A program made the translations under genes and the position numbers. A stretch of 64,000 nucleotides of DNA from Escherichia phage EJP2. The stretch is taken from the sequence record OQ411014.1. One strand, written 5' to 3'. The notes under the pieces were generated by a model, which saw only the letters and a list, made by a program, of their open reading frames with translations, had not been told where the DNA came from and searched no databases. Below are positions 1,442 to 62,496 of the stretch, in pieces; positions within the stretch are counted from its first letter, which is position 1, and each line of letters starts with the position of its first letter.

Positions 1442-2071
1442 ATGACAACTCACGTTAGGTATTATATTGCATATAATGGAAGACCAGTTCGTTCTATTGG
1501 ATTAGATCTTGAGCCAGTAATGTCTGTACAGACTAATCTATACTTCAGTACTGAAGAAGAAGCAGACTCTTTCATTATGACTAGGATTGCAACTGCGTCC
1601 ACTACACTTTATCATATTCATTTTGATTGTATTGATAAGTACTCAATCGTCAAAGAAATTGTTCAGTTGGAACCGTGCAGTACTAAAACTAATTATATGC
1701 GAAACTATACTCTAACTTGGTTGCGATTACTCGACCAGGATATCTGTACTGATTCTATGATTTCCACTACTATACGTGCGTTCGTCATGCGTGGGTTTAG
1801 TACATCAGGATTGGATTTAGAAGAAGTGAAAAACTTGATTTTGGGTAATCCAAAACTTCAAAAAACCATTGACAAACTTATTCCAAAGCATATAATCTCT
1901 AATATTGAAAATTACATGCAAGATGGTTTAGTCAATGCTCCGGTGGAAGAGCTTGAATTCTTGAATCTAACAATTTCAGATGAAATGAAATTTGATCTTG
2001 ACTTCGAAGAACTCTTCCCTTACAATAAGTTCAAACCAACAAAATGGGAAAATCATGGAACTAGTAACTGA
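1442..2071 (+). CDS. hypothetical protein
   Basis: 209-aa ORF. No recognisable motifs. Confidence 0.6.
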   Translation: MTTHVRYYIAYNGRPVRSIGLDLEPVMSVQTNLYFSTEEEADSFIMTRIATASTTLYHIHFDCIDKYSIVKEIVQLEPCSTKTNYMRNYTLTWLRLLDQDICTDSMISTTIRAFVMRGFSTSGLDLEEVKNLILGNPKLQKTIDKLIPKHIISNIENYMQDGLVNAPVEELEFLNLTISDEMKFDLDFEELFPYNKFKPTKWENHGTSN

Positions 2072-3308
2072 AGGTCGCAAACTCGTAACAATTCGTAAAA
2101 TCAATGCAATTGATGCAATTGAAGGTGCAGATCTGATTGTCAAAGCAACTGTTGACGGTTGGGATGTAGTTGTGAAGAAAGATGAATTCAACGTTGGGGA
2201 TTACTGTGTATTCTTCGAAATCGATTCATTCCTTCCAGTACAGACACCACAATTCGCATTCTTGGCGGGTTCAGGCTGTAAACTCGATGAACAGAATGTA
2301 GAACGTTTCCGTCTACGTACTCGTAAACTTCGCGGGGTAGTCTCTCAAGGCTTGGCTCTACCAGTATCTCTATTTGAGGCAGTACTGGAAGCTATTGACG
2401 AAGCTGGTGGTCATCACCCTGACTCGTACACTACAACGGCACGTGAAGAACTCCTAGTGAGTCTAGAGGCGAATCGTGAAGGCATTGAGCAATTCCTCAA
2501 TGTAACCAAATACGAGCGTCCTGATGAGCGTAATGGCGGTACTGGTGCATCTAAGTGCAAAGCTGCTGGTAACTTCCCTATCGTCATTCCTAAGACTGAT
2601 GAAGACCGTATTCAGAACGTAATGGGTAAGTACTCTCAGACTATGAAAGGTGTTGCATTCCGTAAATCACTGAAACTGGATGGTTCTAGCCAGACAATTG
2701 CATTCATTAGCAATCCTGATTTCTTTGTAGATAAAGTTGATGAAGAAGTCCGTGCATGGAATGAAGAGACTCAAGAACTTGAAGTTGTTGAAGTGAAGCC
2801 ATACCCGTTCCAATGGGAAGATGGTCAGGTAGCAGTATGTTCTCGCAATCTTGCGTTGAAATTTGATGCTGAATCTCACTTCTGGAAAGCAGCACTGAAA
2901 GATGATATTCCAGCACGTCTGAAAGAGTACTGTGTTCGTAATGACCGCCAACTAGCACTACAAGGCGAAGTAATGGGTCCTGGTATCCAAGGGAACCGTG
3001 AAGAACTGACCGAACATCAATTCTACGTATTCCGTATTTGGGATATTGATAATAAATGTTTCCTTGATGATGGTGATTTCTTGACACTATCTGCACTACT
3101 GGGATTGACTACAGTACCGCAAGGTGATATCGTGTACTTCTTCGATGAATACACTTCTATCAAAGAAGCATTGGCATCTGCTGACCACGCATCTATCAAG
3201 CATAAGATCGCGGAAGGCGATGTGTTCAAAAGTGTATCTAAAGTGAATGGTGTTACTGTACACTTCAAGGTAATCAACAACAAATTCTTGCTCAAATGTG
3301 AGGACTAA
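2055..3308 (+). CDS. putative ATP-dependent RNA ligase (N-terminal OB-like domain plus nucleotidyltransferase domain)
   Basis: Covalent nucleotidyltransferase motif I KxDG (SLKLDGSS) and a motif-IV-like QGEVMG. N-terminal GADLIVKATVDGWDVVV...VGDYCVFFEIDSFLP resembles a tRNA-binding OB fold. Start moved from 1992 to ATG 2055, which has an RBS. Confidence 0.5.
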   Translation: MELVTEGRKLVTIRKINAIDAIEGADLIVKATVDGWDVVVKKDEFNVGDYCVFFEIDSFLPVQTPQFAFLAGSGCKLDEQNVERFRLRTRKLRGVVSQGLALPVSLFEAVLEAIDEAGGHHPDSYTTTAREELLVSLEANREGIEQFLNVTKYERPDERNGGTGASKCKAAGNFPIVIPKTDEDRIQNVMGKYSQTMKGVAFRKSLKLDGSSQTIAFISNPDFFVDKVDEEVRAWNEETQELEVVEVKPYPFQWEDGQVAVCSRNLALKFDAESHFWKAALKDDIPARLKEYCVRNDRQLALQGEVMGPGIQGNREELTEHQFYVFRIWDIDNKCFLDDGDFLTLSALLGLTTVPQGDIVYFFDEYTSIKEALASADHASIKHKIAEGDVFKSVSKVNGVTVHFKVINNKFLLKCED

Positions 3309-4279: not shown

Positions 4280-5200
4280 GTGCATAAAGCGATACAAGAA
4301 CTCAAAACTCGTACTAAGGTTGTTCTATTAGTAAGTTTTCTGTTGCTTGCCGCTGCTATTGGATTATATGGTTTATATCAAAATGATCGTACTACATCAT
4401 CGGGTTCAGAAGAATCAGTAGTACAAAATCAAATTCAAAAGCAACCAGTTACAACGTTACCAATGCAAAAGGCAACAGTACTGGAAAGCAGGAAGCAATA
4501 CGTAGTGCAAGCAGGTGATAGTTATTGGATCATCACTAATAAGATGAAACCTAATAACGTTGAACCACTTGAGTATATGGCAGTACTGAAGAAAGTGAAT
4601 AACAATGTTCAGTTACACACTGCTGTACCAATCTACGTGCCGAATGACAATGATTTGATGCATGTTACATTACCAGATGTGGTTGTCAAATTTGACGTAT
4701 ACGACGATATTGTCGTAAACCACATCAAGGAAGCAGAAGGTTCGAAGGAAGCACAGTCTAATAACAAGAGACGTCTTCTGGGTGGTAAAGTAGGTCCGTC
4801 ATTTAGTAAAAATCGTTTCTATCCTTACAAGGACACGAAAGGAAATTATACTATTGGGTACGGTCATTATATTGGTCCCAAAGAGTCCGAAGCGAGAAAG
4901 TATCGTTTTGGGTTGACCGAACGTGAAGCACACAAACTGTTGATTCAGGATATGAAAAAGACTCGTGAAGATTTCATATTGTTGCTGAAGCGTAAAAATG
5001 CAGTGAATCTAAGTGTTGAACAGCAACGTGTTTTATACGAAATGGCATTCAACATGGGCGTTGACAAACTGAGTACATTTGGTAAACTATGGAAAAGTGT
5101 AGAACGTCAAAATGAAAAGAAGTTCAAAAAAGAAATTGAGAACTCATTGTGGTACAGACAAGTAGGCAACCGTGCTGAAATGTTACTGAGTTCTCTATAA
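4280..5200 (+). CDS. membrane-anchored LysM plus T4-lysozyme-like (GH24) muramidase
   Basis: GTG start with AGGAGG RBS. N-terminal TM helix VVLLVSFLLLAAAIGLYGLY, LysM-like YVVQAGDSYWII, and C-terminal YKDTKGNYTIGYGH...SLWYRQVGNRAEML matching the T4 lysozyme core. Confidence 0.7.
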   Translation: MHKAIQELKTRTKVVLLVSFLLLAAAIGLYGLYQNDRTTSSGSEESVVQNQIQKQPVTTLPMQKATVLESRKQYVVQAGDSYWIITNKMKPNNVEPLEYMAVLKKVNNNVQLHTAVPIYVPNDNDLMHVTLPDVVVKFDVYDDIVVNHIKEAEGSKEAQSNNKRRLLGGKVGPSFSKNRFYPYKDTKGNYTIGYGHYIGPKESEARKYRFGLTEREAHKLLIQDMKKTREDFILLLKRKNAVNLSVEQQRVLYEMAFNMGVDKLSTFGKLWKSVERQNEKKFKKEIENSLWYRQVGNRAEMLLSSL

Positions 5201-5216
5201 CAGAGAGGTGTTATAT

Positions 5217-5549
5217 ATGCTAAATGTAAACGTTCAAGGTAATGTAGAAATCACTGACGCAATTCATGAACATATTCTGGCTGAAGCGGATCATCTAGAA
5301 AAGTACAGTACTGATAAAGTACTGGAACTTGATGTTCACGTGAAAAAAGAACACAAAACTCAATACACTGTAACAATCGTTGGTAACGGCAAATCCAGTA
5401 CTGCCAACGCTGCTGATTTATACAAAGCAATCACTGACTCCTTTGGTAAAATGGATAAAGTGCTTGGTAAAGATAAGAGTGTAAAAATCAGTCGCCGTAA
5501 CAATCCTGTTCATCCTGTTGAAATTGACTTGACAGAAGACGAAGAGTAA
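5217..5549 (+). CDS. hpf: ribosome hibernation promoting factor / RaiA (YfiA) homolog
   Basis: NVEITDAIHEHILAEADHLEKY...DLYKAITDSFGKMDKVLGKDK aligns along its length with the bacterial HPF/YfiA family. ATG at 5217 with AGAGAGGTG RBS. Confidence 0.75.
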   Translation: MLNVNVQGNVEITDAIHEHILAEADHLEKYSTDKVLELDVHVKKEHKTQYTVTIVGNGKSSTANAADLYKAITDSFGKMDKVLGKDKSVKISRRNNPVHPVEIDLTEDEE

Positions 5550-6139: not shown

Positions 6140-6242
6140 AGAAGACTGGGGCGTAGGTGGGGATTACAATCCATTTGAACCTGAAGAAAAAGAAGAGTCC
6201 CCATCGTGGTGGGATTGGGTTCGTGGATTATTCGGGCGATAA

Positions 6243-6657
6243 TATGAAAATAGAACCTGAACGCATTGCTAAACTAAAACAACTCATGGAACATACGTTA
6301 GAACTTCCACGAGAAAATCTAACATCATTCACAACCAAACCTTGGTGTACAGGTTGGTGGGTTAGTGATTATGTTTATGCTGATTATGACCACAACGAGC
6401 TAATGATTTGTGTACTGAAAAGTGACGTGGTGTGGGGACAGACTGGTAAGTTATACATAAGTTCAAATCACGTTCAATTGATAAAAACTGCACCACCGTT
6501 TACACTTAGCGTTCCGAGAATCAGTACTGAAGAAGAGTATTTTCAACAGTCAACACTTCATGATTTGACAAATTTGGACTTGGATTTCTTTTTGACTTGT
6601 AATAAACTCTATTCACTATGTTGCAGTTTACACACGATTGGGGATACAGATGTATAG
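6243..6657 (+). CDS. paralog-family protein 1 (conserved STEEE-YFQ-LHDL-LDLDFF C-terminus)
   Basis: First of four tandem paralogs. C-terminal ISTEEEYFQQSTLHDLTNLDLDFFL. Start set at ATG 6243 by alignment with paralog N-termini. Confidence 0.55.
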
Positions 6658-7042
6658 TCGTATGCTAAAAGAACTGAATGAACTTCTGGTGAATGTATTG
6701 GGATGGCCTGCTGATAATTACAGATACATCAGAGAACGTGATTTAGGAACCATCAGAGATTGCTGGGTGAATAAATTCACATTCGCAGAAGATAATTGTG
6801 GTGATGTTTCGGTATCTTTGTCTAAATGTTCGGATATTGATTTTTGTTACATCAAGATATTGGAAGATGCAGTGGAGTTCCGAAAAGGATTGTCTACGAT
6901 TTGGAGTTACCCACGATTGAGTACTGAAGAAGAGTTTTTTCAATTATCAGTACTGCATGATACATCTGGCTTGGATTTGGACTTCTTTTTGAATTGCACT
7001 AAACTATACAACCTGGGCAAAATTGCACTAATAGAGGGATAA
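6650..7042 (+). CDS. paralog-family protein 2
   Basis: C-terminal LSTEEEFFQLSVLHDTSGLDLDFFL. ATG at 6650 with GGGGA RBS. Overlaps the upstream stop. Confidence 0.55.
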   Translation: MYSRMLKELNELLVNVLGWPADNYRYIRERDLGTIRDCWVNKFTFAEDNCGDVSVSLSKCSDIDFCYIKILEDAVEFRKGLSTIWSYPRLSTEEEFFQLSVLHDTSGLDLDFFLNCTKLYNLGKIALIEG

Positions 7043-7043
7043 C

Positions 7044-7454
7044 ATGGCTATGAATCCAAATAAAGTAGTACAGCTAAGAGATTTACTACCGTACATTTTA
7101 GAACTTCCTGAGAAAGCACATAAACGATTGTCCTTCCGATATGAAGTTGGTGGTGGGTGGATCAATGACTTTGTGAATGTATTTTTCATCAATGACAAGC
7201 TCACAGTTTCCGTGACTGCTGATGTGGAGTTTAAAACTGGTTACTTCACTATAAGCGAAAATACAGTTGAATATTACACTTCCAATAAAGGTGGTGCGAA
7301 ACCGGAAATAACGTACAAACTTGTCAGTACTGAAGAAGAGCATTTCCAGGAGTCACTAATTCATGATTTAACACTTTTAGATCTGGACTTCTTCCTGAAC
7401 TGTGCTAAAATATACGCACTATGTGATGATTTGATCACGATTGATTATTATTGA
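7044..7454 (+). CDS. paralog-family protein 3
   Basis: C-terminal VSTEEEHFQESLIHDLTLLDLDFFL. GAGGGA RBS. Confidence 0.6.
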   Translation: MAMNPNKVVQLRDLLPYILELPEKAHKRLSFRYEVGGGWINDFVNVFFINDKLTVSVTADVEFKTGYFTISENTVEYYTSNKGGAKPEITYKLVSTEEEHFQESLIHDLTLLDLDFFLNCAKIYALCDDLITIDYY

Positions 7455-7462
7455 GGATTATA

Positions 7463-7864
7463 ATGTACAATAGTGTAATGATGCAGCATTTCACTACAAT
7501 GATTGGTGCTGCCATGAATAGTCCTAAACTGAAAACGTTACGCATCATTGATGGTGCGTGCTGGATTACAGAAAATGCTTTTATCTGGATGCATGAGAGT
7601 CGTGATAAATTAACTATCACAATAAAGCCATCATTTAGTTTAGAAGAGATACTACAACATAGTAGTATTGATATCAAACATGATAGTATAGATATTCGTA
7701 ACTCCCATAACCCAAAAGGTATTAATATCCCACGTATTAGTACTGAAGAAGAGTACTTTCAACAAAGTACTATTCATGATTTATCAAATTTCAACCTTGA
7801 TTTTTTCAAACAATGTGCAGTACTGTTCGATAAAACATGGGATCAACTTACATGGTGTAAGTAG
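7463..7864 (+). CDS. paralog-family protein 4
   Basis: C-terminal ISTEEEYFQQSTIHDLSNFNLDFF. ATG at 7463 with GAGGA RBS. Confidence 0.55.
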   Translation: MYNSVMMQHFTTMIGAAMNSPKLKTLRIIDGACWITENAFIWMHESRDKLTITIKPSFSLEEILQHSSIDIKHDSIDIRNSHNPKGINIPRISTEEEYFQQSTIHDLSNFNLDFFKQCAVLFDKTWDQLTWCK

Positions 7865-7891
7865 TATTTTACATTATTATGAGGAACTAAA

Positions 7892-9001
7892 ATGAAAAAG
7901 TATTTGGTTGGTGGTTTTGTACGCGATAAGCTACTTGGCTTACGTCCTAAAGACAAAGATTATGTCTTGGTAGGAGCGACCCCGCGTGATATTCAGTACT
8001 TAAAAAGTATTGGATATGAGCAGGTTGGTGCAGACTTCCCTGTGTTCTTGGATAAGGACGGCAATGAGCACGCACTTGCCCGTACTGAACGCAAGGTGTC
8101 TGATGGCTATAATGGCTTTGAAGTGAATACACAAGGTGTAACGCTTCAGGAAGACTTGTATCGTCGTGATTTGACCATCAATGCGATTGCCTTTGACCCA
8201 CAGTTAAAGGTACACGTAGACCCATATGGTGGCAAAGAAGACCTAAAGAACAAAGTACTGCGACATGTATCTGAACATTTTGAAGAAGATCCAGTACGTA
8301 TTCTGCGTATCGCTCGTTTCAGTGCACGTTATTCGGACTTTACAGTACATGAAAGTACTGAATCGTTGATTCGCCGTATGATCAATCGTGGCGATATTTC
8401 TGAATTGACTAAAGAGCGAGTGTACGTAGAATTCGAGAAAGCATTCTCCGAAGAAGAGCCAGTTATCTTCCTGGAGAAGCTATCCAAATGGGGAGCCATG
8501 AGTAAGTTGATTCCTGGTAATCCTGAAAGTACTTACAAGACTATTGAATACATTAGTTCCAATTGTACTTTAGCGTATAAGGATTTTTACTTGTGGGCTG
8601 AACTAATTGGTTCTAATGAAGTACAAAAAGATGGAGTCTTTGGTCAGGTCAAGCTACCATCGCGTTACTCTAAGTTCAGTGCGTATGTATGCAAGCACGC
8701 GGATAGTATCAAGAATTTCCGTAAGAGCACCCCAGAAGAAATGGTAAATATTCTTACTGAGATGAGCGTAAAGAACAACGGTGGTGAAGAGTACTTGTAC
8801 AAAGTACTGGAATACTTTATCCTACGTAAAGAGATTGATTTGGACTTAGAAGATTTGATTATTCGAGTTTATGATCGCTTTGAGAATACGGTCATTGGTA
8901 ATATTGATCAGATGCTTAAAGATGGAACTATCACTTCACGTGAAATTCCTTCTTTTGTGAAAGAGAAGCGAATCGCTGAGGTGGAAAAAATCTTCAAATA
9001 A
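7892..9001 (+). CDS. cca: CCA-adding tRNA nucleotidyltransferase (class II head domain, no HD domain)
   Basis: N-terminal LVGGFVRDKLLG...DKDYVLVGATP...GADFPVFL...ALARTERK...RRDLTINAIA closely matches bacterial CCA-adding enzymes. At 369 aa it lacks the C-terminal HD domain. Confidence 0.9.
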   Translation: MKKYLVGGFVRDKLLGLRPKDKDYVLVGATPRDIQYLKSIGYEQVGADFPVFLDKDGNEHALARTERKVSDGYNGFEVNTQGVTLQEDLYRRDLTINAIAFDPQLKVHVDPYGGKEDLKNKVLRHVSEHFEEDPVRILRIARFSARYSDFTVHESTESLIRRMINRGDISELTKERVYVEFEKAFSEEEPVIFLEKLSKWGAMSKLIPGNPESTYKTIEYISSNCTLAYKDFYLWAELIGSNEVQKDGVFGQVKLPSRYSKFSAYVCKHADSIKNFRKSTPEEMVNILTEMSVKNNGGEEYLYKVLEYFILRKEIDLDLEDLIIRVYDRFENTVIGNIDQMLKDGTITSREIPSFVKEKRIAEVEKIFK

Positions 9002-9002
9002 A

Positions 9003-9032
9003 TTGAGATATTTTCGAAAAAAGTGATATATT
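9003..9032 (+). promoter_or_regulatory. early promoter (TTGAGA -35, TGn TATATT)
   Basis: TTGAGA 9003-9008, TG 9024-9025, TATATT 9027-9032. Confidence 0.45.
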
Positions 9033-9064
9033 ATAAGTATCTGAGATATGTAAGAGATAAAAAT

Positions 9065-9742
9065 ATGCGATATACATGCGGGATAATATTTTATCGAAAC
9101 GGTCAGATACTTGTAGGTCACACGACTGGTCAGAGTCATTGGGATTTACCGAAAGGTAAGACTGAAGGTTCTGAGACATTCAAGGAAGCGGCAGTTCGTG
9201 AATGCTATGAAGAAACTGGATACAGTATTGATGAACGAGATTTACTGTACTTAGGTGATGTATCATACAGAAAGGGAAAGCGTTTAGTACTGTTCTTTTA
9301 CACAGCCAAGACGAAACCAATTGCTGAAGAGTTGCAATGTATCAGTACTTACACGAATAAGTACGGTATTGTACGTCCAGAGTTGGACAAATTCAAGTAC
9401 ATAGACATTGAGGACTGTGAACTCTACTTGACTGAACGGATGTGTGATAGTATAATCAAAGCTATTACACAATTTGATAAAAAGACAAATAAAAAGGAAG
9501 ATAATATGAAAGTTGTAATTTATGGTCGTAAAGCTGGTTGTAAGTGGTGTACTACTGCTAAAGAAGTTTGTGAAACTAACTCAATTGATTTTGATTTCAT
9601 TGATTTAGATGAAGCTGGTATTGATGGTGCTAAACTCGCTGAAATTTGTGGCACTCCAGTACGTACTGTTCCACAAATTTTCGTTGACGATCAACACATT
9701 GGTGGTTGTACTGAGTTTATTTCGCACCTATCCAAAATGTAA
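9065..9742 (+). CDS. Nudix hydrolase joined in-frame to a glutaredoxin-like domain
   Basis: Complete Nudix box GKTEGSETFKEAAVRECYEETGY. C-terminal 78 aa is glutaredoxin/NrdH-like (CKWC, TVPQIFVDDQHIGG) and has its own internal ATG at 9506 with an AAGGAAG RBS, but no stop separates the two domains. Confidence 0.7.
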   Translation: MRYTCGIIFYRNGQILVGHTTGQSHWDLPKGKTEGSETFKEAAVRECYEETGYSIDERDLLYLGDVSYRKGKRLVLFFYTAKTKPIAEELQCISTYTNKYGIVRPELDKFKYIDIEDCELYLTERMCDSIIKAITQFDKKTNKKEDNMKVVIYGRKAGCKWCTTAKEVCETNSIDFDFIDLDEAGIDGAKLAEICGTPVRTVPQIFVDDQHIGGCTEFISHLSKM

Positions 9743-9750
9743 GGTTTCAA

Positions 9751-10002
9751 ATGTCAAGTCTTCAAGAATTCCATAACAAAAGTTCTGCACAAGCCCAGCG
9801 ACTTGCTAAACATTTTGGTGTAGAACTCAAGATGCCGGATTTAGCAGAAATAGAAGCGAAAGCAAAGCATCGCATCATGTTGATGGAGAAGTATCATGAG
9901 CAGAAAGATATGTACGATGCAGCGATTCATAAACTGCTTGACATTGTACCTGCTGATGTATTACAATCTATCATATCGAAACTGCTAAATTCTTCGAAAT
10001 AA
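9751..10002 (+). CDS. hypothetical protein
   Basis: 83-aa ORF. No recognisable motifs. Confidence 0.5.
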   Translation: MSSLQEFHNKSSAQAQRLAKHFGVELKMPDLAEIEAKAKHRIMLMEKYHEQKDMYDAAIHKLLDIVPADVLQSIISKLLNSSK

Positions 10003-10053
10003 ATAACAATGAAGGGTAACAAATCCTTCGTTATGAAATTTGGGAGAAATACT

Positions 10054-10299
10054 ATGACTAGTTTCCGTGAACAATTGGCTCAAGGTAAATTCGAGAGCAA
10101 AACATCCAGTACTAACATTCCTAAGAAAAGTGCTTTTCTGGGAACAATTACTGAAGATGGTTATTGTGATTACAACGTGCCAGAAGACTCTTGGTATGTT
10201 AGTAAGGACATGAAACGCAGTATTCGCTTACACCAAAGTACGGTTGCGAGAAAACAACGTAAGGAACTTCGTCGTTTATTGACGGGTTCTGAAGACTAA
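10054..10299 (+). CDS. hypothetical protein
   Basis: ATG at 10054 with GGGAGA RBS; the ORF track starts earlier at 10009. Followed by the terminator at 10307-10336. Confidence 0.45.
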   Translation: MTSFREQLAQGKFESKTSSTNIPKKSAFLGTITEDGYCDYNVPEDSWYVSKDMKRSIRLHQSTVARKQRKELRRLLTGSED

Positions 10300-10306
10300 T
10301 AATTTA

Positions 10307-10336
10307 AAAGGACTCCTAAATCAAGAGTCCTTTTTT
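10307..10336 (+). terminator. rho-independent terminator
   Basis: GGACTC ... GAGTCC stem followed by TTTTTT. Confidence 0.55.
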
Positions 10337-10350
10337 CATCGAGATAAAAT

Positions 10351-10851
10351 ATGAATAACATCACACATCACGTAGGAAATCTTTTCAACTTATATAAAGA
10401 AGTAGGTGAAGAGAATAACAGTACTGATAGTGAAGTAATGAACGTTATTATTCATGGTTGTAACGCACAAGGTCGTATGGGTTCTGGTTTTGCTAAAGAA
10501 TTACGTGCACGTTTTCCTGGTGCTTATAACGAATATAAAAAACAGTACGAAAGTACTGGACTTCAGTTAGGAAAGAACGTATACTACTTACCACATGATG
10601 AAAACACCCTTATCGTAAATGCTATCACTCAAGAGTATTACGGATATGATGGTAAGAAGTACGTTAGTTATGACGCAATTGATGATTGTATGATTGAACT
10701 AAATACTCTACTTTCTGGAATGGATGGAAATATCCAAATTCACTTCCCAAAAATCGGAGCCGATTTAGGTGGTGGTAATTGGGAAGTAATCAAAAGTATC
10801 ATTGAAACACGGGTAATCTTTGGTACTAAGCATCTATATACCCTAGTATAA
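10351..10851 (+). CDS. macro domain protein, TARG1/OARD1-like ADP-ribosyl hydrolase
   Basis: HGCNAQGRMGSGFAKELRARFPG and PKIGADLGGGNWEVIKSIIE match the RMGAGIA and RIGCGLDRLQWENV segments of TARG1-type macro domains. Confidence 0.7.
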   Translation: MNNITHHVGNLFNLYKEVGEENNSTDSEVMNVIIHGCNAQGRMGSGFAKELRARFPGAYNEYKKQYESTGLQLGKNVYYLPHDENTLIVNAITQEYYGYDGKKYVSYDAIDDCMIELNTLLSGMDGNIQIHFPKIGADLGGGNWEVIKSIIETRVIFGTKHLYTLV

Positions 10852-10882
10852 TTTTATCAATAACTTCAAAGGAATGAACAAC

Positions 10883-11215
10883 ATGGCTACTGAAAAAGCA
10901 CAAATCGTCGTAAAACTACTACACATTGCAGGTCAAGGTCCAGTACTAGCAGTACTACAAGGTGAAACCAACGATTCCCTAATCACCATGCATCCAGCAC
11001 AACTTGGTCAAGATGAGAATGGCGATATTCAAATCCTATCCTATCTTGGTGGTCTAGTTGCTGAAGATGCACCAGTAGTATTCATGAAGTCTAACATTGT
11101 TGCGGTATGTGAAGTTGAACCGACTCTAGGTAAAGAATACGTTTCTGCTGTAGAAGCATTGACAAAATCCTCTGTTGGTGTTATTATGCCTCCAGAAAAG
11201 AAAATCATTCTATAA
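10883..11215 (+). CDS. hypothetical protein
   Basis: ATG at 10883 with AAGGA RBS. No recognisable motifs. Confidence 0.5.
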   Translation: MATEKAQIVVKLLHIAGQGPVLAVLQGETNDSLITMHPAQLGQDENGDIQILSYLGGLVAEDAPVVFMKSNIVAVCEVEPTLGKEYVSAVEALTKSSVGVIMPPEKKIIL

Positions 11216-11234
11216 GACAAAATAAGGTACTAAT

Positions 11235-11621
11235 ATGATCCGTAAAGAAGACACCAAACCAGTTGTAACTTTCCAAGCAATCGTAGTACTGAAAGGTACT
11301 GCACCAGAAGTCATTGCAGCAGAGTTAGTAATGGCAGGGATGACTACTCTACATCAGTACAATCCAAAGTCCAATTCATTTGTAGGTAATTATGAAGCGG
11401 GTGAATTCACTAAACATTGGGATTCATGGGTAAAAGACAATGACTTGCGTCAAGCTGTGTACTTTGCGGATAATATTGACCAGCTAAACGAAGTATCGTA
11501 TTTGGCAGAACTAGAAAGCGTTCCAATGAACGCATTCGATGAAGATAGTAGTGTTCTAGTACTGGGACCGTTCAGTGGAGAACGTATTGACTATCTGACC
11601 ACGAACTTCACTAAAGCATAA
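11235..11621 (+). CDS. hypothetical protein
   Basis: 128-aa ORF. No recognisable motifs. Confidence 0.55.
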   Translation: MIRKEDTKPVVTFQAIVVLKGTAPEVIAAELVMAGMTTLHQYNPKSNSFVGNYEAGEFTKHWDSWVKDNDLRQAVYFADNIDQLNEVSYLAELESVPMNAFDEDSSVLVLGPFSGERIDYLTTNFTKA

Positions 11622-11682
11622 TAAAATAAAAAAGCATCTCTAAATACAGTAACAGTAAACGTTACTTATGAAGAGGTGCTTT

Positions 11683-12468
11683 ATGGCATATGATTATCAG
11701 GGCAACCCAGAAGCCCCAAATTACGACCACAGAGAAAAATTAAAAGATGTAATTACTACACGTCTAGGAGCTGGGGCAGTAGAAGTAGAAATTACTGATG
11801 ACCAGTTAGAGTTAGCTATTGACATGGCAGTAGAGAACTACAGAGCGTGGTCAGGCAATTCCAAAGAAGAATCATTCTTGCATATGAAACTATTCCCATC
11901 TGAATCAGTCTATGTGTTACCAACAGAAGTTGAAATCGTTCGCAGAATTTACCGCAGGGGTAATGGTGTAGTATCAGGAAACAGTAGTACTGTTGACCCA
12001 TTTAGTCTTGCTTATAGCAATACTTATCTATTATCGGCAGTTCGTGGTAGTACTGGTGGTGGTCTATTAACTTATGACTTGTATCACCAATTTGATGAAA
12101 CTGTAGCACGTCTATTCGGTCGTGAGATTATATTCCAATGGAACCCAGTTAACAAAAAACTAATTATTGATCGTGACATTCGTGGTGAAGAAGATGTACT
12201 ATTACATGTGTACCAAAACGTACCAGAGCCAATGCTATTCAAACAGCAAATGACTTATCCTTGGTTGCGTGATTGGGCTATGTCTGAAGCGATGCTAATG
12301 TTAGGTCGTAACCGTTCTAAATTTGCTACCCTTCCAGGGCCACAAGGTACATTCAGTATGGATGGTAATGAACTTCGCCAGGAAGCAATGGCAATGCAAG
12401 AGAAATTAGAGCAACAAATCCGTAATTACAGAGATGGTTCAATGCCATTATCTTTCATTATTGGATAA
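11683..12468 (+). CDS. hypothetical protein, possibly virion (neck/tail) associated
   Basis: ATG at 11683 with GAGGTG RBS. Sits just upstream of the dNMP kinase and tail sheath genes. Function not recognised. Confidence 0.5.
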   Translation: MAYDYQGNPEAPNYDHREKLKDVITTRLGAGAVEVEITDDQLELAIDMAVENYRAWSGNSKEESFLHMKLFPSESVYVLPTEVEIVRRIYRRGNGVVSGNSSTVDPFSLAYSNTYLLSAVRGSTGGGLLTYDLYHQFDETVARLFGREIIFQWNPVNKKLIIDRDIRGEEDVLLHVYQNVPEPMLFKQQMTYPWLRDWAMSEAMLMLGRNRSKFATLPGPQGTFSMDGNELRQEAMAMQEKLEQQIRNYRDGSMPLSFIIG

Positions 12469-12504
12469 AGTACTTTTACAGTACTGAAGTTTCAATACAA
12501 TACT

Positions 12505-12540
12505 AGAGATGCACTATAATGGTGTCATCTCTTTTCTTTT
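12505..12540 (+). terminator. rho-independent terminator
   Basis: AGAGATG ... CATCTCT stem followed by a T-rich run. Confidence 0.45.
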
Positions 12541-12557
12541 ATATAAAGGAGTTATAT

Positions 12558-13202
12558 ATGGCACGGAAGATTGTAGCTATCAATGGGACAATTGGTTCAG
12601 GTAAGGACACATTTAGTGAAGAGTTTATTCAAGCTGGGTGGCATCGAATGTCATTTGCTTCTACACTAAAGGATGCTGTAGCAGTTATCTTTGGTTGGGA
12701 TCGTGAAATGTTAGAAGGTAATACTAAGGAAGCCCGTGTAATTCGTGAAACACGCGATGAGTACTGGAGTGTAAAACTCGGTCGTGAAGTTACTCCACGC
12801 TGGGTACTTCAAAACTTCGGTACTGATGTTGTTCGTACTCATTTTCATGATAATACGTGGGTATTTTCATTAGAAAACCAGATGCGTAAAATTGAAGGTA
12901 ATATTATTATTACTGACTGTCGTTTCCCGAATGAAATTCAGATGCTTCAAGAGAACGATGCAGTACTAATTGAAGTTCAACGTAACACTCCAGAATGGTA
13001 TGGTAAAGCATATGCATACAATTCAATTATAGATTCTGGTGCTTCTGCTGAAATACCTTCAGTACTGCAAGATATTCATCGTTCTGAATGGGCGTGGATT
13101 GGTCGTAATAAGAACAGAATTTTAGTAGAGAATAGTGGTACAATTGAAGAGCTACATAAGCAAGCTAGTTGGATTCGTCACGGTATAGAGGACTCTAAGT
13201 AG
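12558..13202 (+). CDS. deoxynucleoside monophosphate kinase (T4 gp1-like)
   Basis: Walker A GTIGSGKDT and FGTDVVRTHFHDNTWV, IITDCRFPNE blocks colinear with T4 Dnmk. ATG at 12558 with AAGGAG RBS. Confidence 0.8.
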   Translation: MARKIVAINGTIGSGKDTFSEEFIQAGWHRMSFASTLKDAVAVIFGWDREMLEGNTKEARVIRETRDEYWSVKLGREVTPRWVLQNFGTDVVRTHFHDNTWVFSLENQMRKIEGNIIITDCRFPNEIQMLQENDAVLIEVQRNTPEWYGKAYAYNSIIDSGASAEIPSVLQDIHRSEWAWIGRNKNRILVENSGTIEELHKQASWIRHGIEDSK

Positions 13203-13285
13203 TCCCTTTCAGTACATTAGATTTAATCCTCCAATAAATAACATTATACGAATATTCTATAATACCAATTTTTTGGAGGATTAAA

Positions 13286-15931
13286 ATGGCTGATCTATTA
13301 TCACCAGGTGTAAGTGTAACAGTCACTGATGAGTCAATGAGCGGTGCTTCTGCTCCAGGGACTGTCCCACTTATCATCATTGCAACTGCACAAGACAAAT
13401 TGGTTCCAGGCAGCACATCTGTTGCACCAGGGACTCTCAAAGCGAACGCTGGTAAACTACAGCTACTAACTTCACAAAAAAATGCCCTTGACGTATTCGG
13501 GACACCTATTTTTCAGAAACATTTAGGTTCAGTAGTTCAAGGCGACGAATTAAACGAATACGGCTTACATGCTGCTTATTCATATTTGGGAATTGCAAAC
13601 CGTGCTTATGTAGTACGTGCTGACATCGACCTAGCACAGCTAGCACCAACTGGTACTGCACCAACTGGCCCTGTTACCAACGGTAAACTATGGTTAGATA
13701 CTACTGCAAGTCAAGTTGAAGCATATGTTGCTAAGAAAGATGACCCACAATCATTCTACGACTGGCAACTAAAACCAGTACGCATCGTTAGTGCGGCTGA
13801 TATTGCTGATGTTGATACTATTGGTCTAAACGTTGATGACCTAGTACTACGTTACAACCCAGCGAATGGTCAACTACTAATGTACAAATTTTCTGCTGCT
13901 GGTCTAGTTCAAGTTGAAACTTACCTATCACCAATCAACAAAGTACCATCAGGTATTGAATACAATGAAGGTGATATTTGGATTCGTGATGGTTTCACTA
14001 AATCTGGTTCTAACTACTTCGGTACTCGTTTTGTTATTAAACGTTATGCTTCTCTAACTCGCGTATGGCAGAATGTTGATACCTTTACTGGTACAAGTTT
14101 CTATGAAATTGAATCTAAAACTGGTGTAATGTCGTCTTCTTACATCACTGCACTATTCGATTATGATAGTAATAGTTTCTCCTTCTATATGCAACGTGCT
14201 TCATTACCTACCGTTACCGCTGGTGCAGTTCCAGTTGGTCAATCTTCGGTAAACACTGCTGCTGTTGATGGTTTCTTAACTGTTAATTATCTAAATAAAT
14301 CCGTTAAAGTACTAGCAGTACTACAAGGTCAACTAATTAATGCTGCTGTTATCATTGAAAATTTGAATAAGAGTTCAGTACTAATTAACGCAGGTTTCAC
14401 ATTCACTGGAACACAAGATGTTGTCATTACTAACCGTAATGGATATAGTTTTAAAGTGAGTCAATCAGACGAAGTGATTTTTAGCCAACAAGAACTCAAG
14501 AAACTAACTCAAGATAGCAGTAACTATGCACTAGTTAACGTTAACAACCTAGTAACTTCAGCAACCGAACCACGTGCTGTTGCACCAGAAGGTACTTACT
14601 GGTATGACTTTAGTAACTCTGACAATCTTGAAGTAACTCTTTATACTGCTAATACCAGTACTGAAGATTGGGATCTAGTAATTGCTAGTGACAAGTACAT
14701 CCAAGTTGATGAACCTGCTGCTGACCGTTCTTTCTGGGTTCTACCACTATCTCAAGGTATTGATGGTTATGAGTTCTATCGTAACGTAAATGGTGAGTGG
14801 ATTAAACTAGATCCAGCAGACCAAAGTACTCTAAACGGTATGATTTACGAAGACTTCAATGACGAAGTACCAAGTGCTAACCTATACCAAAACGGTATGC
14901 TTGCAATTGACCTAGGCAATACTGAAGGTGTTGTTAAACAAATGGTTAATGGTAAGTGGGTAGTAGTAAGTGGTGTTGCTATTGATGGTTCTGGTCTATT
15001 TGGTCGTCATGCACAACGTCAAATGATTGTTGAAGCTATGGCATCTGTTATCGTTAGCAACGAAGCGATTCGTTCTGAGACTGTCGATTTCAACCTAGCG
15101 GTTGCTCCTGGTTATGTTGAACTACTAGATGAACTAGTAACTCTAAACACTGACCGTAAAGAAACATCTTTCTTGATTACTGATGTTCCAGCACGTTTGA
15201 AACCTTCCAGTACTGACGTACAAGAATGGGCTACTAACGCTAACAACGCTCCAAGTAACGGTGATATCGGTCGTGTAACTGCATACGATTACGCTGCACA
15301 ATACATGGGTTGGTGCTTAGGTACTAACGTTGATGGTGAAGAAGTTGCTATTCCTGGTTCTTCTGTTGCACTACGTACCTATGCGTACAGTGACAGTGTT
15401 TCTTATGTATGGTATCCACCAGCAGGTACTGCACGTGGTGTTGTTTCCAACGCTGCTTCAGTAGGCTTCATCAATGATGAAGGCGAATATGAGCCAGTAG
15501 TTTACAACCAAGGCCAACGTGATATCATGTATATCAACAAGATTAACCCGATTGCAATGCGTCCAAACCGTGGTCTACTAGTTTATGGTGATAAGACACT
15601 AACTGCGAACGAAACTTCAGCACTAGCGAACGTAAACGTAGCACGTCTAATCGTATACATTCGTCGTCAACTAGACATTCTTGCTGAACCATTCCTATTC
15701 CGTCTAAACACCCCAAGTACTCGTCAGGAGTTCGCTGGTGTAGTGAACAGCTTCCTAGCAGAAATCGTTCAACTAAATGGCCTATACGACTTTACTGTTG
15801 TGTGTGATGAATCAAACAACACCCCAACTCGTATTGACCGTACTGAACTATGGATGGATATTGCGATTCAACCAACTCGTACAATTAACTACATTTATGT
15901 ACCAATTCGTATCGAGAAAACTCAAGCATAA
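13286..15931 (+). CDS. tail sheath protein (T4 gp18-like, 881 aa)
   Basis: N-terminus MADLLSPGVSV and C-terminus VVCDESNNTPTRIDRTELWMDIAIQPTRTINYIYVPI match contractile sheath termini. GGAGG RBS and downstream terminator. Confidence 0.92.
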   Translation: MADLLSPGVSVTVTDESMSGASAPGTVPLIIIATAQDKLVPGSTSVAPGTLKANAGKLQLLTSQKNALDVFGTPIFQKHLGSVVQGDELNEYGLHAAYSYLGIANRAYVVRADIDLAQLAPTGTAPTGPVTNGKLWLDTTASQVEAYVAKKDDPQSFYDWQLKPVRIVSAADIADVDTIGLNVDDLVLRYNPANGQLLMYKFSAAGLVQVETYLSPINKVPSGIEYNEGDIWIRDGFTKSGSNYFGTRFVIKRYASLTRVWQNVDTFTGTSFYEIESKTGVMSSSYITALFDYDSNSFSFYMQRASLPTVTAGAVPVGQSSVNTAAVDGFLTVNYLNKSVKVLAVLQGQLINAAVIIENLNKSSVLINAGFTFTGTQDVVITNRNGYSFKVSQSDEVIFSQQELKKLTQDSSNYALVNVNNLVTSATEPRAVAPEGTYWYDFSNSDNLEVTLYTANTSTEDWDLVIASDKYIQVDEPAADRSFWVLPLSQGIDGYEFYRNVNGEWIKLDPADQSTLNGMIYEDFNDEVPSANLYQNGMLAIDLGNTEGVVKQMVNGKWVVVSGVAIDGSGLFGRHAQRQMIVEAMASVIVSNEAIRSETVDFNLAVAPGYVELLDELVTLNTDRKETSFLITDVPARLKPSSTDVQEWATNANNAPSNGDIGRVTAYDYAAQYMGWCLGTNVDGEEVAIPGSSVALRTYAYSDSVSYVWYPPAGTARGVVSNAASVGFINDEGEYEPVVYNQGQRDIMYINKINPIAMRPNRGLLVYGDKTLTANETSALANVNVARLIVYIRRQLDILAEPFLFRLNTPSTRQEFAGVVNSFLAEIVQLNGLYDFTVVCDESNNTPTRIDRTELWMDIAIQPTRTINYIYVPIRIEKTQA

Positions 15932-28233: not shown

Positions 28234-28530
28234 ATGACTCGTGATGAAATCATTCAAATGATTCTCACTGAGCGTAATCGTCAAACAGAGAATCCAAACA
28301 CTGTTTCTGACTTACACAAAACCAAAAATGATTGGGCTGCTTTGGCAGCCTATTATTTGTTTGAAGGTGCAAGTCGTTCCGATAAACATGTATCTTTCGA
28401 AGAGTTTCGTAGTTCTCTAGTTCAAACTGCTGCCGTCATTATTGCAGCACTAGAAACCAGCTATGCTCATGAGAATGAAACGGTTCGAGATTTACTATCT
28501 CAACTGGAAAATAAAGATGACAAGCAATGA
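28234..28530 (+). CDS. hypothetical protein
   Basis: 98-aa ORF. No recognisable motifs. Confidence 0.45.
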   Translation: MTRDEIIQMILTERNRQTENPNTVSDLHKTKNDWAALAAYYLFEGASRSDKHVSFEEFRSSLVQTAAVIIAALETSYAHENETVRDLLSQLENKDDKQ

Positions 28531-29107
28531 GTTACAACTTGCTCTTAGTGATCTAGATAATGTATGTTATAGTGGCGGTGCTAAAGGGGCAGACCGCCTC
28601 TTTGGTATCTGGGCTACTGAAAATGGTTTTCAAGAAGTACATTTCTCTTTCAAGAAACATAATTATGTTGTAGATGAAAGTACTATCATTGAAATTCCAG
28701 ATTCGATTCTACAGGATAGTACTGTAATCGATAAACTCAAGAAAGCGAACTACTCTTTAGGAAGAAGTATTCCAAAGAAAGGTTCTTATGTTTATAATCT
28801 ACTTGCACGTAATACGTTTCAAGTTCTTCTTACTGAACGTGTGTATTGCATCAGTCCTTTAGCATCACCAACAACCGTTTCAGGTGGTACAGCATGGGCT
28901 GTTCAAATGTACATTGACCAGTACGAGAATCCTGTAATTTACGGTTATGACCCACTTCGGAAAGAAGCATATCAGTACTGTAATACTAAGAAAGAATTCA
29001 TTACAGTTGATTCTGTTCCAGCACCTACTGGTAAATGGACAGGTATTGGTTCACGTGAAACTACAGAGAATCACATGCAAGCATTCGTTAGTTACTTCAG
29101 GAGTTGA
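28517..29107 (+). CDS. hypothetical protein with SLOG/DprA-like Rossmann motif
   Basis: YSGGAKGADRLFG resembles the GxARGID-type signature of Smf/DprA-LOG superfamily enzymes. Weak assignment. Confidence 0.4.
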   Translation: MTSNELQLALSDLDNVCYSGGAKGADRLFGIWATENGFQEVHFSFKKHNYVVDESTIIEIPDSILQDSTVIDKLKKANYSLGRSIPKKGSYVYNLLARNTFQVLLTERVYCISPLASPTTVSGGTAWAVQMYIDQYENPVIYGYDPLRKEAYQYCNTKKEFITVDSVPAPTGKWTGIGSRETTENHMQAFVSYFRS

Positions 29108-29373
29108 TGATGAGTGATGAGTGTGATAATTGCGATTACCGTTATGAATCAGGCCACAGAGACGGATATGAGCAAGGTTGTAAAGACTCCAGTTCGGAAA
29201 ATTACGAACAAGGTTATAAAGATGCAAAAGACGAAGGTGCTAGAGAATTAGATGATCAATTAGCGAACATGAGTTCGAACTTCTCTAGTGTAATACGAGA
29301 TTTAGTTGCAAGGAATAAGCAACTACAGCAAGAAATTTATGAGATAAGGAAATCCAATGCAACAGCTTCATGA
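29104..29373 (+). CDS. hypothetical protein
   Basis: ATGA overlap with the upstream gene. Internal YEQGxKD repeats. Confidence 0.45.
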   Translation: MMMSDECDNCDYRYESGHRDGYEQGCKDSSSENYEQGYKDAKDEGARELDDQLANMSSNFSSVIRDLVARNKQLQQEIYEIRKSNATAS

Positions 29374-30289
29374 TTTATATTCAAAAGTACTAAACGAAGG
29401 TGTCACATCAGAAGACCGTACTGGTACTGGTACTATCAAACTGATTGGTCAACAAATGCGTTTCGATTTGAAAGAAGGCTTCCCAGCGACAACAACGAAA
29501 CGTCTAGCATGGAAAGCAATGACTTCTGAACTGTTGTGGTTCCTCGAAGGTTCACAAAACGAACGTCGTTTATGTGAAATTCTACATGGTACTACTGACC
29601 CAGAGAAACGTACAATCTGGACTGGTAACTATGAGAATCAAGGACAGAAACTTGGATACGTCAATGGCAATCTCGGCCCTGTTTATGGTAAACAATGGCG
29701 TGAGTGGGAAGATGTAGTTATCCTTCCTGGTGTGTACACTGAAGTAGTAAAACATACTGAAATGGGTTACAATCTAGTTGAACGTACTACTAGTGGTATG
29801 TATGTAATGCAACGTACTATTGACCAGATTGCAGTACTGGTTGATGGTTTGAAGAATGATCCAAACGGTCGCCGCCACATCCTATCTGCATGGAACGTTG
29901 GTGATTTAGATAAGATGGCACTACCACCTTGTCATAGTTTTGTTCAGTTCTTTGTGGTTGATGGTAAGCTAAGTTGCTCACTATATCAACGCAGTGCAGA
30001 TCTCTTTTTAGGTGTACCATTCAATATTTCAAGTTATTCTCTACTAACTCATATGCTTGCACAAGTGTGTGGTTTGGATGTTGGTGAGTTCATTTGGAAT
30101 GGTGGTGACTGTCACATTTATCTAAACCACATCGACCAAGTTCGTGAACAATTGTCACGTGAACCAAAAGAATTACCACAATTGTGGTTGGATGAAAATA
30201 TTACTGATATTGATACATTTACAATGGATTCGTTCAAACTTCTGAACTACAATCCTGATTCAGTAATCAAAGCACCAATGGCAGTTTAA
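29357..30289 (+). CDS. thyA: thymidylate synthase
   Basis: RTGTGT...QMRFDL, ELLWFL and active-site PPCHSF ... LGVPFNISSYSLLTHM motifs. Confidence 0.9.
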   Translation: MQQLHDLYSKVLNEGVTSEDRTGTGTIKLIGQQMRFDLKEGFPATTTKRLAWKAMTSELLWFLEGSQNERRLCEILHGTTDPEKRTIWTGNYENQGQKLGYVNGNLGPVYGKQWREWEDVVILPGVYTEVVKHTEMGYNLVERTTSGMYVMQRTIDQIAVLVDGLKNDPNGRRHILSAWNVGDLDKMALPPCHSFVQFFVVDGKLSCSLYQRSADLFLGVPFNISSYSLLTHMLAQVCGLDVGEFIWNGGDCHIYLNHIDQVREQLSREPKELPQLWLDENITDIDTFTMDSFKLLNYNPDSVIKAPMAV

Positions 30290-43083: not shown

Positions 43084-43111
43084 AATGAAAAAAGGAACCC
43101 GAAGGTTCCTT
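43084..43111 (-). terminator. terminator with UUCG tetraloop
   Basis: Minus-strand reading AAGGAACC-TTCG-GGTTCCTT followed by TTTTCATTT. Confidence 0.5.
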
Positions 43112-43587
43112 TAGAATATATATGGCAAGCTGTTGAAAAATGGCTTGCCATTTTTTATTGATTGCCATAGTGAGTTAAAGTCTGTTATAATATTGGTATT
43201 ATACAAAGTGCTTTTAGCTCCAGGGTGTAGTGGTTTAGGCCAGTTTCCTATCTTGACCCACGAATATCCTGCACTTTCATGGTTAAGTTCTGGTATAAAT
43301 TCACCCTGTACCACAACTATAAATGAATAATATTTAAACTTTCCATTTTTAGTACAGAATACATCGAAAGGGATTATATCTTCAATGTCCGGTACTGAAT
43401 CACCCAACTCTTCTGAGATTTCTCTATGAAGTGCTTGAATAGGAGTTTCAGTACTTTCAATCTTCCCACCAACGAAACCCCAGTTGTTTGCATATGTAGA
43501 AGTGTCTGAACGCAAGTTCAGCATCATCCTTCCAGTATTCTTCGATAAAAATATTGCTCCTACTGCTTCGTTAGTCATCTTTGTCAT
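43111..43587 (-). CDS. Nudix hydrolase
   Basis: Nudix box GKIESTETPIQALHREISEELG (G-x5-E-x7-R-E-U-x-E-E-x-G). Confidence 0.7.
   Translation of the reverse strand: MTKMTNEAVGAIFLSKNTGRMMLNLRSDTSTYANNWGFVGGKIESTETPIQALHREISEELGDSVPDIEDIIPFDVFCTKNGKFKYYSFIVVVQGEFIPELNHESAGYSWVKIGNWPKPLHPGAKSTLYNTNIITDFNSLWQSIKNGKPFFNSLPYIF
43123..43156 (+). terminator. rho-independent terminator
   Basis: TGGCAAGC ... GCTTGCCA stem followed by TTTTTT. Confidence 0.5.
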
Positions 43588-48844: not shown

Positions 48845-48878
48845 ATAAAAAGGAGCCTTTCGGCTCCTTTTTTTTATT
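48845..48878. terminator. bidirectional terminator between ClpA-like gene and giant gene
   Basis: A-run, GGAGCC-TTTC-GGCTCC, T8 run. Confidence 0.6.
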
Positions 48879-58887: not shown

Positions 58888-58922
58888 TTTATTCTCCATA
58901 AAATTCATTTCTTCATTTGTTT

Positions 58923-62426: not shown

Positions 62427-62496
62427 AATTAATCCTTGCGTTCTAATATGAGTTATATATCTTACGTTTTCTATGCACACGTATTATGAATTTATT

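Follow-up and report, generated by a model that had tools for sequence, protein, structure and literature searches.

Stand-alone macro domains of two phages are known, from two studies of 2025-2026, to act against the host DarTG2 system. In T4, a transposon screen for genes required on a DarTG2 host came up with tk.4 alone, whose clean knockout proved to be sensitised to DarTG2, and the gene was named adfM (bioRxiv 10.1101/2025.11.20.689424). PhiKZ gp104, independently named AdfM, strips an oligonucleotide of DarT2-made ADP-ribose (ADPr) in vitro, and phage that lacks it drops in titre by 3-6 logs on DarTG2 hosts (PMC13309987). A related cellular enzyme, SCO6735, hydrolyses thymidine-ADPr DNA very efficiently by a mechanism unlike that of TARG1; it cleans DarT-modified DNA faster than DarG or TARG1 do, and in both E. 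coli and Streptomyces it rescues the cells from DarT toxicity (PMC9411070). Here we describe a macro-domain protein of Escherichia phage EJP2, encoded in a stretch of 64 kilobases (kb) that was analysed as a whole (henceforth the window) out of a genome of roughly 350 kb. The protein belongs to the same phage family as Tk.4 and gp104, its predicted active site is of the kind seen in SCO6735, and its most likely role is that of an enzyme against DarTG2.

Fold and class of the EJP2 macro protein

The open reading frame (ORF) runs from ATG to stop and encodes 166 amino acids (aa), with an identical choice of start codon by metagenome gene callers. The Pfam Macro profile (PF01661) aligns over 115 of its 118 positions (E 4e-5) with a score of 24 bits that passes the cutoff of 22 by a small margin, and the match to phrog_335 (E 1.7e-43) reinforces the assignment. 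Both T4 Tk.4 (1.3e-65) and PhiKZ gp104 (8.2e-43) belong to the same PHROG; hence the EJP2 protein shares its phage family with the two validated AdfMs, being like them a stand-alone macro domain homologous to Tk.4 and gp104. In direct BLASTP comparisons it shows 34% identity to Tk.4 (E 3e-16) and a purely local match of 30% to gp104 (9e-7).

A single-sequence search of the PDB recovered Bt_1257 (1e-11), Poa1p (8e-7), SCO6735 (2e-6) and the macro domain of Thermus DarG (1e-4), with TARG1 remaining insignificant (E 0.6). With a profile built from 48 homologues the corresponding values were 4e-24 for Bt_1257, 7e-13 for Poa1p, 7e-18 for SCO6735 and 7.5e-13 for Taq DarG, while TARG1 was reached at 7.5e-9, a significance that it attains by profile only. 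An AlphaFold2 model computed from the alignment of the same 48 homologues has a mean predicted local distance difference test score (pLDDT) of 93.2 and a predicted template-modelling score (pTM) of 0.89. It displays the three-layer α/β/α macro fold with two glycine-rich ligand loops, and its nearest structural neighbours are Bt_1257, Poa1p, DarG and TARG1. Thus, the nearest neighbours in both sequence and structure are members of the ALC1-like (TARG1/DarG) class, set apart from the MacroD, viral and PARG classes. The EJP2 protein is a macro domain of this ALC1-like/TARG1-like class, and our confidence in the fold is high.

A Gln-type active site with clade-specific residues

To map the active site, T4 Tk.4 and PhiKZ gp104 were taken from annotated records and the PDB sequences from HMMER output, the TARG1 sequence used being identical to PDB 2lgr. 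The residues were mapped with MAFFT, and the numbering was cross-checked against the published numbers for DarG (N22/K80) and SCO6735 (H24/V25/N27/K34). Loop 1, the substrate-binding segment, holds His35, Asn38 (equivalent to DarG N22 and SCO6735 N27), Arg42 and Ser45 (equivalent to SCO6735 K34), with His35-Gly36-Cys37-Asn38 aligned to H24-V25-C26-N27 of SCO6735. Gly36, Asn38 and Gly41 are invariant in the 48-sequence alignment. Loop 2, the phosphate-binding segment (PKIGADLGGGNW), aligns without gaps to the TARG1 segment PRIGCGLDRLQW, and the P and W of this loop lie 11 residues apart in all sequences. The sequence-only reading that had drawn attention to this ORF was therefore right in seeing a genuine gene with both TARG1-class signature segments (residues 33-48 and 133-144). 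The combined match to the segments and the family is far above the chance level, and the structure prediction that it had proposed as a check returned, as described above, a confident macro fold.

The catalytic residues tell a different story from the class. Thr93-Gln94 occupies the position that is T-K84 in TARG1, T-K80 in DarG, G-Q85 in SCO6735 and T-Q in T4 Tk.4; the profile alignment to 5m31 places 'aitqe' opposite 'fptkk', and the chain numbering confirms K80. In loop 2, Asp138 falls at the position of SCO6735 G128 and TARG1 G123, and Gly140 at that of TARG1 D125. Hence, the proposal of a TARG1-type macro domain stands for the class, as seen in the profiles and the fold, and fails for the TARG1 catalytic dyad Lys84/Asp125, which is replaced by Gln94 and Gly140. 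The sequence-only reading had counted the absence of the conserved catalytic lysine/aspartate on alignment against its own claim, and they are indeed absent. Nevertheless, the missing dyad does not refute activity because SCO6735, with Gln85, and T4 Tk.4, likewise with Gln, share this state.

Instead, the alignments point to a catalytic centre of the Gln type found in SCO6735 and T4 Tk.4, with Gln94 at the catalytic-Lys position and Asn38 in loop 1. Asn38, Thr93 and Gln94 are invariant in all 121 homologues, and together with His35 they form a set of strictly or nearly strictly conserved residues. A mobile loop bridges Gln94 and the conserved Tyr107-Asp108. It has 12 residues in the EJP2 protein, 13-14 in SCO6735 and Bt_1257, and 8 in T4 Tk.4 and TARG1; a longer loop is characteristic of the SCO6735/Bt_1257 subclass (PMC9411070), and the extended loop after the Gln is thus shared with that subclass. 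In a neighbour-joining tree the clade of the EJP2 protein groups with T4 Tk.4 and SCO6735/Bt_1257, all Gln-type, with the Lys-type PhiKZ gp104, DarG and TARG1 forming a group of their own elsewhere.

The comparison with individual relatives bears out this mixture of likeness and difference. Like the EJP2 protein, T4 Tk.4 is a stand-alone phage domain (the two being ~155-166 aa long) of phrog_335 with a common HGCN motif, Thr-Gln at the catalytic-Lys position and a PxIGAxxGxGNW loop. It differs in its short loop after the Gln, in having Gly at the Asp138 position, in lacking the N-terminal insertion (12-30), and in its genome neighbourhood, the tk-vs region. SCO6735 (Streptomyces coelicolor, PDB 5e3b) and Bt_1257 (Bacteroides, PDB 2fg1/2afc) are cellular, basic proteins with 25-29% identity to the EJP2 protein. 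PhiKZ gp104 (K78) and DarG2 (K80; PDB 5m31/5m3e/5m3i) are of the Lys type, and gp104 is imported into the phage nucleus, with nothing suggesting such an import for the EJP2 protein. In human TARG1/OARD1 (PDB 4j5r, 2lgr) a Ser stands at the Asn38 position in addition to the Lys84/Asp125 dyad, and we rejected a filing of the EJP2 protein as a TARG1 orthologue on account of the replaced K84 and D125. Yeast Poa1p (PDB 6lfq-6lfu), an ADP-ribose-1''-phosphate phosphatase of the tRNA-splicing pathway that involves Tpt1, carries Thr-Ser in place of Thr-Gln and a large insertion before loop 2.

In DarG itself the macro domain is joined to a DarT-binding domain at the C-terminus and the gene lies next to darT; the EJP2 protein shows neither feature. 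The DarG models of PADLOC (1e-12) and NCBIfam (NF048014, 6e-10) match the macro part only, with a DarG score of 38.8 bits where the cutoff is 250 and a match confined to profile positions 14-134 of 338. A filing as DarG was therefore rejected, and an identity with the DarG antitoxin does not hold for a protein of 166 aa that corresponds to the macro part alone and has no neighbouring DarT. No family of ADP-ribosyltransferases (ARTs), DarT, NADAR or Tpt1 was detected among the scanned ORFs of the window, for which reason we regard the protein as an orphan and not as a DarG.

At two functional positions the EJP2 protein departs from SCO6735, with Ser45 in place of Lys34, which positions the DNA, and Asp138 in place of Gly128 of the phosphate-binding loop. 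Among the 121 homologues position 138 is Asp or Glu in 50 and Gly or Ala in 66, and the acidic state marks the closest relatives, which are jumbo phages. In 49 of the 50 the acidic residue of loop 2 is paired with an Arg or Lys at position 42 of loop 1 (Fisher test 5e-11, uncorrected for phylogeny). This near-constant pairing suggests a compensated, structured pair of loops; Asp138 and Arg42 possibly form a compensating salt bridge across the ligand cleft rather than marking decay.

A proposed anti-DarTG2 function and its alternatives

Taking the residue states and the family together, we rate at about even chances the full proposition that the ORF encodes a catalytically competent ADP-ribosyl glycohydrolase of the Gln-type SCO6735/Bt_1257/T4 Tk.4 branch with an AdfM-like role against DarTG2. 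In this scheme, a DarT2-type toxin of the host would ADP-ribosylate thymidines of single-stranded phage DNA; the macro protein, acting as an orphan 'antitoxin', would remove the thymidine ADPr and release free ADPr, so that hosts carrying DarTG2 could support the replication, transcription and packaging of the phage. Catalysis would be of the SCO6735 type, for which a water-mediated mechanism has been proposed wherein the Asn locks the Gln and the Gln positions the distal ribose (PMC9411070): Asn38 would lock Gln94, Gln94 would position the distal ribose, and a backbone-held water would attack without the Lys-Asp dyad of TARG1.

Several observations favour this scheme. The invariant Asn38 and Gln94 match N27 and Q85 of SCO6735, both of which are needed for the hydrolysis of thymidine-ADPr DNA: Q85A/E abolishes all activity and N27S nearly all of it (PMC9411070). 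The long mobile loop with its two lysines, Lys102-Lys103, also resembles that of SCO6735. Above all, T4 Tk.4 and PhiKZ gp104 of the same PHROG counter DarTG2, which makes the anti-DarT reading, at a homology of <=34% identity, the best-supported and most likely explanation. The analysis shows the fold, the class, the residue states and the shared phage family, from which enzymatic activity, a DNA-thymidine substrate and the role against DarTG2 are inferred. Thus, the anti-DarT-like role put forward by the sequence-only reading gains a precedent in Tk.4 and gp104, while the TARG1 dyad is absent and the protein is not a DarG.

A number of points weigh on the other side. The identity to the validated AdfMs is low, both for Tk.4 and in the local match to gp104. 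Asp138 sits exactly where the G128E substitution loses most of the DNA activity of SCO6735 (PMC9411070), a position occupied by Gly in every characterised relative except gp104, which has Ala. Similarly, Lys34 of SCO6735, whose K34E mutant also loses most of its DNA activity (PMC9411070) and is nearly DNA-inactive, is Ser45 in the EJP2 protein; a Ser is found here in T4 Tk.4 as well. DNA need not be the relevant substrate, as SCO6735 and TARG1 also act on protein carrying Glu/Asp-ADPr and on uracil-ADPr RNA, and Iyer et al. have argued for small ADPr derivatives as the targets of most macro domains in phages. The isoelectric point (pI) of 5.45, compared with 8.7-10 for SCO6735 and Bt_1257, might be added to this list; it does not discriminate because both validated phage AdfMs are acidic too, and we rejected pI or net charge as a proxy for DNA binding.

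The strongest competitor, though an unlikely one, is an active enzyme that removes ADPr from another macromolecule, either base-linked (e.g. uracil) ADPr on RNA or Glu/Asp-ADPr on protein, attached by a host toxin or defence ART distinct from DarT2. Such substrates lie within the reach of the class, with uracil-ADPr RNA being hydrolysed by SCO6735, TARG1 and DarG (PMC13036486) and Glu/Asp-ADPr on PARP1 E988Q by SCO6735 and TARG1 (PMC9411070). RNA-related genes (an RNA ligase, a hibernation factor and a CCA-adding enzyme) lie upstream of the macro gene, and the clade-specific Asp138/Arg42 pair and Ser45 are unlike the DNA-active enzymes. Against this, SCO6735 is inactive on 2'-OH RNA ADP-ribosylation and, by the results given in PMC11833690, on 5'-phosphate-linked ADPr, no ART gene was found among the scanned window ORFs, and the sole known in vivo phenotypes of phage members of the family are against DarTG2.

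Somewhat less probable still is a small-molecule substrate, be it ADP-ribose-1''-phosphate as in Poa1p (historically annotated 'A1pp phosphatase'), O-acetyl-ADP-ribose or an ADPr-derived immune signal. It would agree with the 'phosphatase' annotation carried by T4 Tk.4, the gene of Erwinia phage Hallingskeid and PHROG 335, and with a Nudix-glutaredoxin gene two genes upstream as well as a second Nudix and a SLOG/DprA-like gene in the window. However, the 'phosphatase' label is an inherited annotation, and neither Tpt1/KptA nor the 2H phosphoesterases, the makers of Appr-1''-p, occur among the scanned window ORFs; the same set has no Pfam family corresponding to the Poa1p-pathway partners, namely the Tpt1/KptA 2'-phosphotransferase and the cyclic phosphodiesterase. 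Moreover, the Asn-Gln pair and the mobile loop fit the glycohydrolase SCO6735 and not Poa1p, with its Ser at the Gln position, and within the family a DarTG2 phenotype is known for T4 Tk.4.

On a par with the preceding alternative, and so rather doubtful, is the notion that the clade of RaK2-like jumbo phages has shifted its substrate or mechanism by joining a Gln-type centre to the acidic Asp138. The substrate might then be a linkage other than thymidine-N3 on DNA, e.g. in a base adduct on RNA or in a signal derived from ADPr, or Asp138 might have taken on the role of a new catalytic base. The differences at Asp138/Arg42 and Ser45 may leave room for such a shift in specificity.

Least probable by a clear step is a binding-only or catalytically weakened protein that sequesters ADPr or ADPr-modified molecules, or inhibits DarT directly without hydrolysis: the state of position 138 in the light of the crippled SCO6735 mutant, the inhibition of DarT through interaction that persists in the catalytically dead SCO6735 Q85A (PMC9411070) and the neutralisation of DarT through binding by ICP1 AdfB would fit it, but it runs counter to the conservation of His35, Asn38, Thr93 and Gln94 across the 121 homologues, to the acidic-basic pairing that suggests compensation rather than decay, and to the activity of gp104 despite its non-Gly residue at position 138.

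Relatives and genomic setting

The phage from which the window derives belongs to the RaK2/GAP32/Serratia-BF group of jumbo myophages, and the nearest record, Erwinia phage Hallingskeid (366 kb), matches half of a 4-kb probe at ~76% nucleotide identity. Hallingskeid has the same order of genes: the CCA-adding enzyme, Nudix, two small ORFs and the 'phosphatase', which is the macro gene with 56% aa identity, followed by small ORFs, the neck/adaptor, the deoxynucleoside monophosphate (dNMP) kinase and the tail sheath. The macro protein is found at 51-57% identity in RaK2, K64-1, GAP32, CBB, Munch, 7t3, fHe-Yen9-04 and large E. coli jumbo phages, and at least 24 metagenomic contigs, drawn from several sequencing runs, encode the exact EJP2 protein. 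This degree of identity across RaK2-like phages of Enterobacteriaceae, along with the recurrence of the exact protein, indicates purifying selection.

More widely, 1,936 phage records have a relative, including T4-like phages (gene tk.4). When 1.84 billion cluster representatives (50% identity clusters) were scanned in full, 7,018 relatives appeared at E <= 1e-3, and among the best 150 of these almost all are stand-alone proteins of about 145-175 aa. Ten genome loci found for cellular relatives carry the gene at 38-44% identity, all stand-alone; in Asticcacaulis currens, for example, the gene lies between infB and purU. Adjacency to darT was considered as a functional clue and discarded: it occurs at none of the ten loci, which fits an 'orphan' and does not inform on function. 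Others of the ten reside on contigs of metagenome-assembled genomes that look phage-derived, where they are accompanied by PhoH, a HAD 'Swiss Army Knife RNA repair' domain and a ribose-phosphate-pyrophosphokinase (PRPP-synthetase)-like gene, a context resembling NAD/ADPr salvage (L004, 2939-7143, on an Aureispira contig, and L005, 1344-2135).

Table 1. Coordinates of the macro gene, its active-site segments and other features of the window
Feature	Position	Strand	Description or basis
Stand-alone macro-domain ORF	10351..10851	+	166 aa plus stop
Loop 1 / substrate-binding segment IIHGCNAQGRMGSGFA	10447..10494	+	residues 33-48; residue map
Arg42 codon	10474-10476	+	
Thr93-Gln94	10627..10632	+	position of catalytic Lys (TARG1 K84, DarG K80) and of SCO6735 Gln85; alignments
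Long 'mobile loop' EYYGYDGKKYVS	10633..10668	+	residues 95-106, with Lys102-Lys103; alignment
Loop 2 / phosphate-binding segment PKIGADLGGGNW	10747..10782	+	residues 133-144; ungapped alignment
Asp138 codon	10762-10764	+	
Terminator-like hairpin AAAAGGACTC-N9-GAGTCCTTTT then TT	10306..10336	+	between the 96-aa ORF and the macro start
RNA ligase	1992-3308	+	PHA02142 OB-fold plus RNA_ligase
Lysozyme-domain protein	4280-5200	+	
Hibernation-factor-like small ORF	5208-5549	+	Ribosomal_S30AE 1.7e-12
Tandem small paralogous ORFs	6157-7864	+	about 134-166 aa
CCA-adding enzyme (tRNA nucleotidyltransferase)	7892-9001	+	
Nudix-glutaredoxin fusion	9023-9742	+	
Small ORF	9751-10002	+	
Small ORF	10009-10299	+	96 aa, directly upstream of the macro gene
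Small ORF	10874-11215	+	
Small ORF	11235-11621	+	
gp13-like neck protein	11668-12468	+	
dNMP kinase	12519-13202	+	
Tail sheath	13286-15931	+	
Probable SLOG-family ORF	about 28463-29107	+	Hallingskeid 'DprA-like' ORF by synteny
Thymidylate synthase	29357-30289		
Giant ORF	32996-38605	-	1869 aa; 'tail fiber protein' by Hallingskeid synteny
Second Nudix hydrolase	43111-43587	-	coordinates from Hallingskeid synteny
T4 gp15-like tail gene	43590-44930		
ClpB/ClpA-like double AAA+ ATPase	46555-48840	+	761 aa
Giant ORF	48874-58908	-	3344 aa; 'virion structural protein' by Hallingskeid synteny
Giant ORF	58965-62480	-	1171 aa; 'baseplate wedge subunit' by Hallingskeid synteny

Upstream of the macro gene (Table 1), the RNA ligase and the CCA-adding enzyme look like a set for RNA/tRNA repair, and the hibernation-factor-like ORF possibly encodes a translation modulator of the phage, as its domain match suggests. 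The hairpin that precedes the macro start has a 10-bp stem followed by a T-run and an RNA folding energy of -11.8 kcal/mol (z -2.84); it was overlooked by a consensus scanner because its loop of 9 exceeds the scanner limit of 8. A sigma-70 promoter scan of 7500-13500 gave 18 sites against 19.6 expected, with none directly upstream of the macro gene, and the T4 late-promoter motif TATAAATA gave 4 matches against 5.9 expected, with none near it. Looser ATAAATA-like strings are seen ahead of several structural genes and were not used as evidence.

Elsewhere in the window, the second Nudix hydrolase lies beside the T4 gp15-like tail gene; either Nudix could conceivably consume ADPr freed by a macro hydrolase. 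A weak match to the SLOG family (YAcAr, E 1.4e-4) was obtained somewhere within the ORF set, and by synteny it probably corresponds to the 'DprA-like' ORF near thymidylate synthase. In phages, a link between SLOG domains and NAD/ADPr networks has been described (Iyer et al.).

The ClpB/ClpA-like ATPase (AAA_2 1e-48, AAA 1e-30, ClpB_D2-small 6e-20) is located among tail/baseplate genes, and its syntenic counterpart in Hallingskeid is annotated 'ATP-dependent protease'. The tandem small ORFs have no Pfam match; two of them (6638-7042 and 7044-7454), with 33% identity between them (E 7e-11), have a common C-terminal motif LDLDFFLNC. No Pfam match at E <= 1e-3 was found for the three giant ORFs.

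The concept of a phage macro domain that acts as an orphan antitoxin is already in the literature, and the EJP2 gene therefore adds breadth rather than a new principle. If its AdfM-like function is true, the Gln-type, SCO6735-like mechanism would reach into a large viral family, and RaK2/GAP32-like jumbo phages would carry a conserved enzymatic counter-defence against DarTG2. As these phages include therapy candidates against Klebsiella, E. coli, Cronobacter and Erwinia, such a function would also bear on the prediction of their host range.
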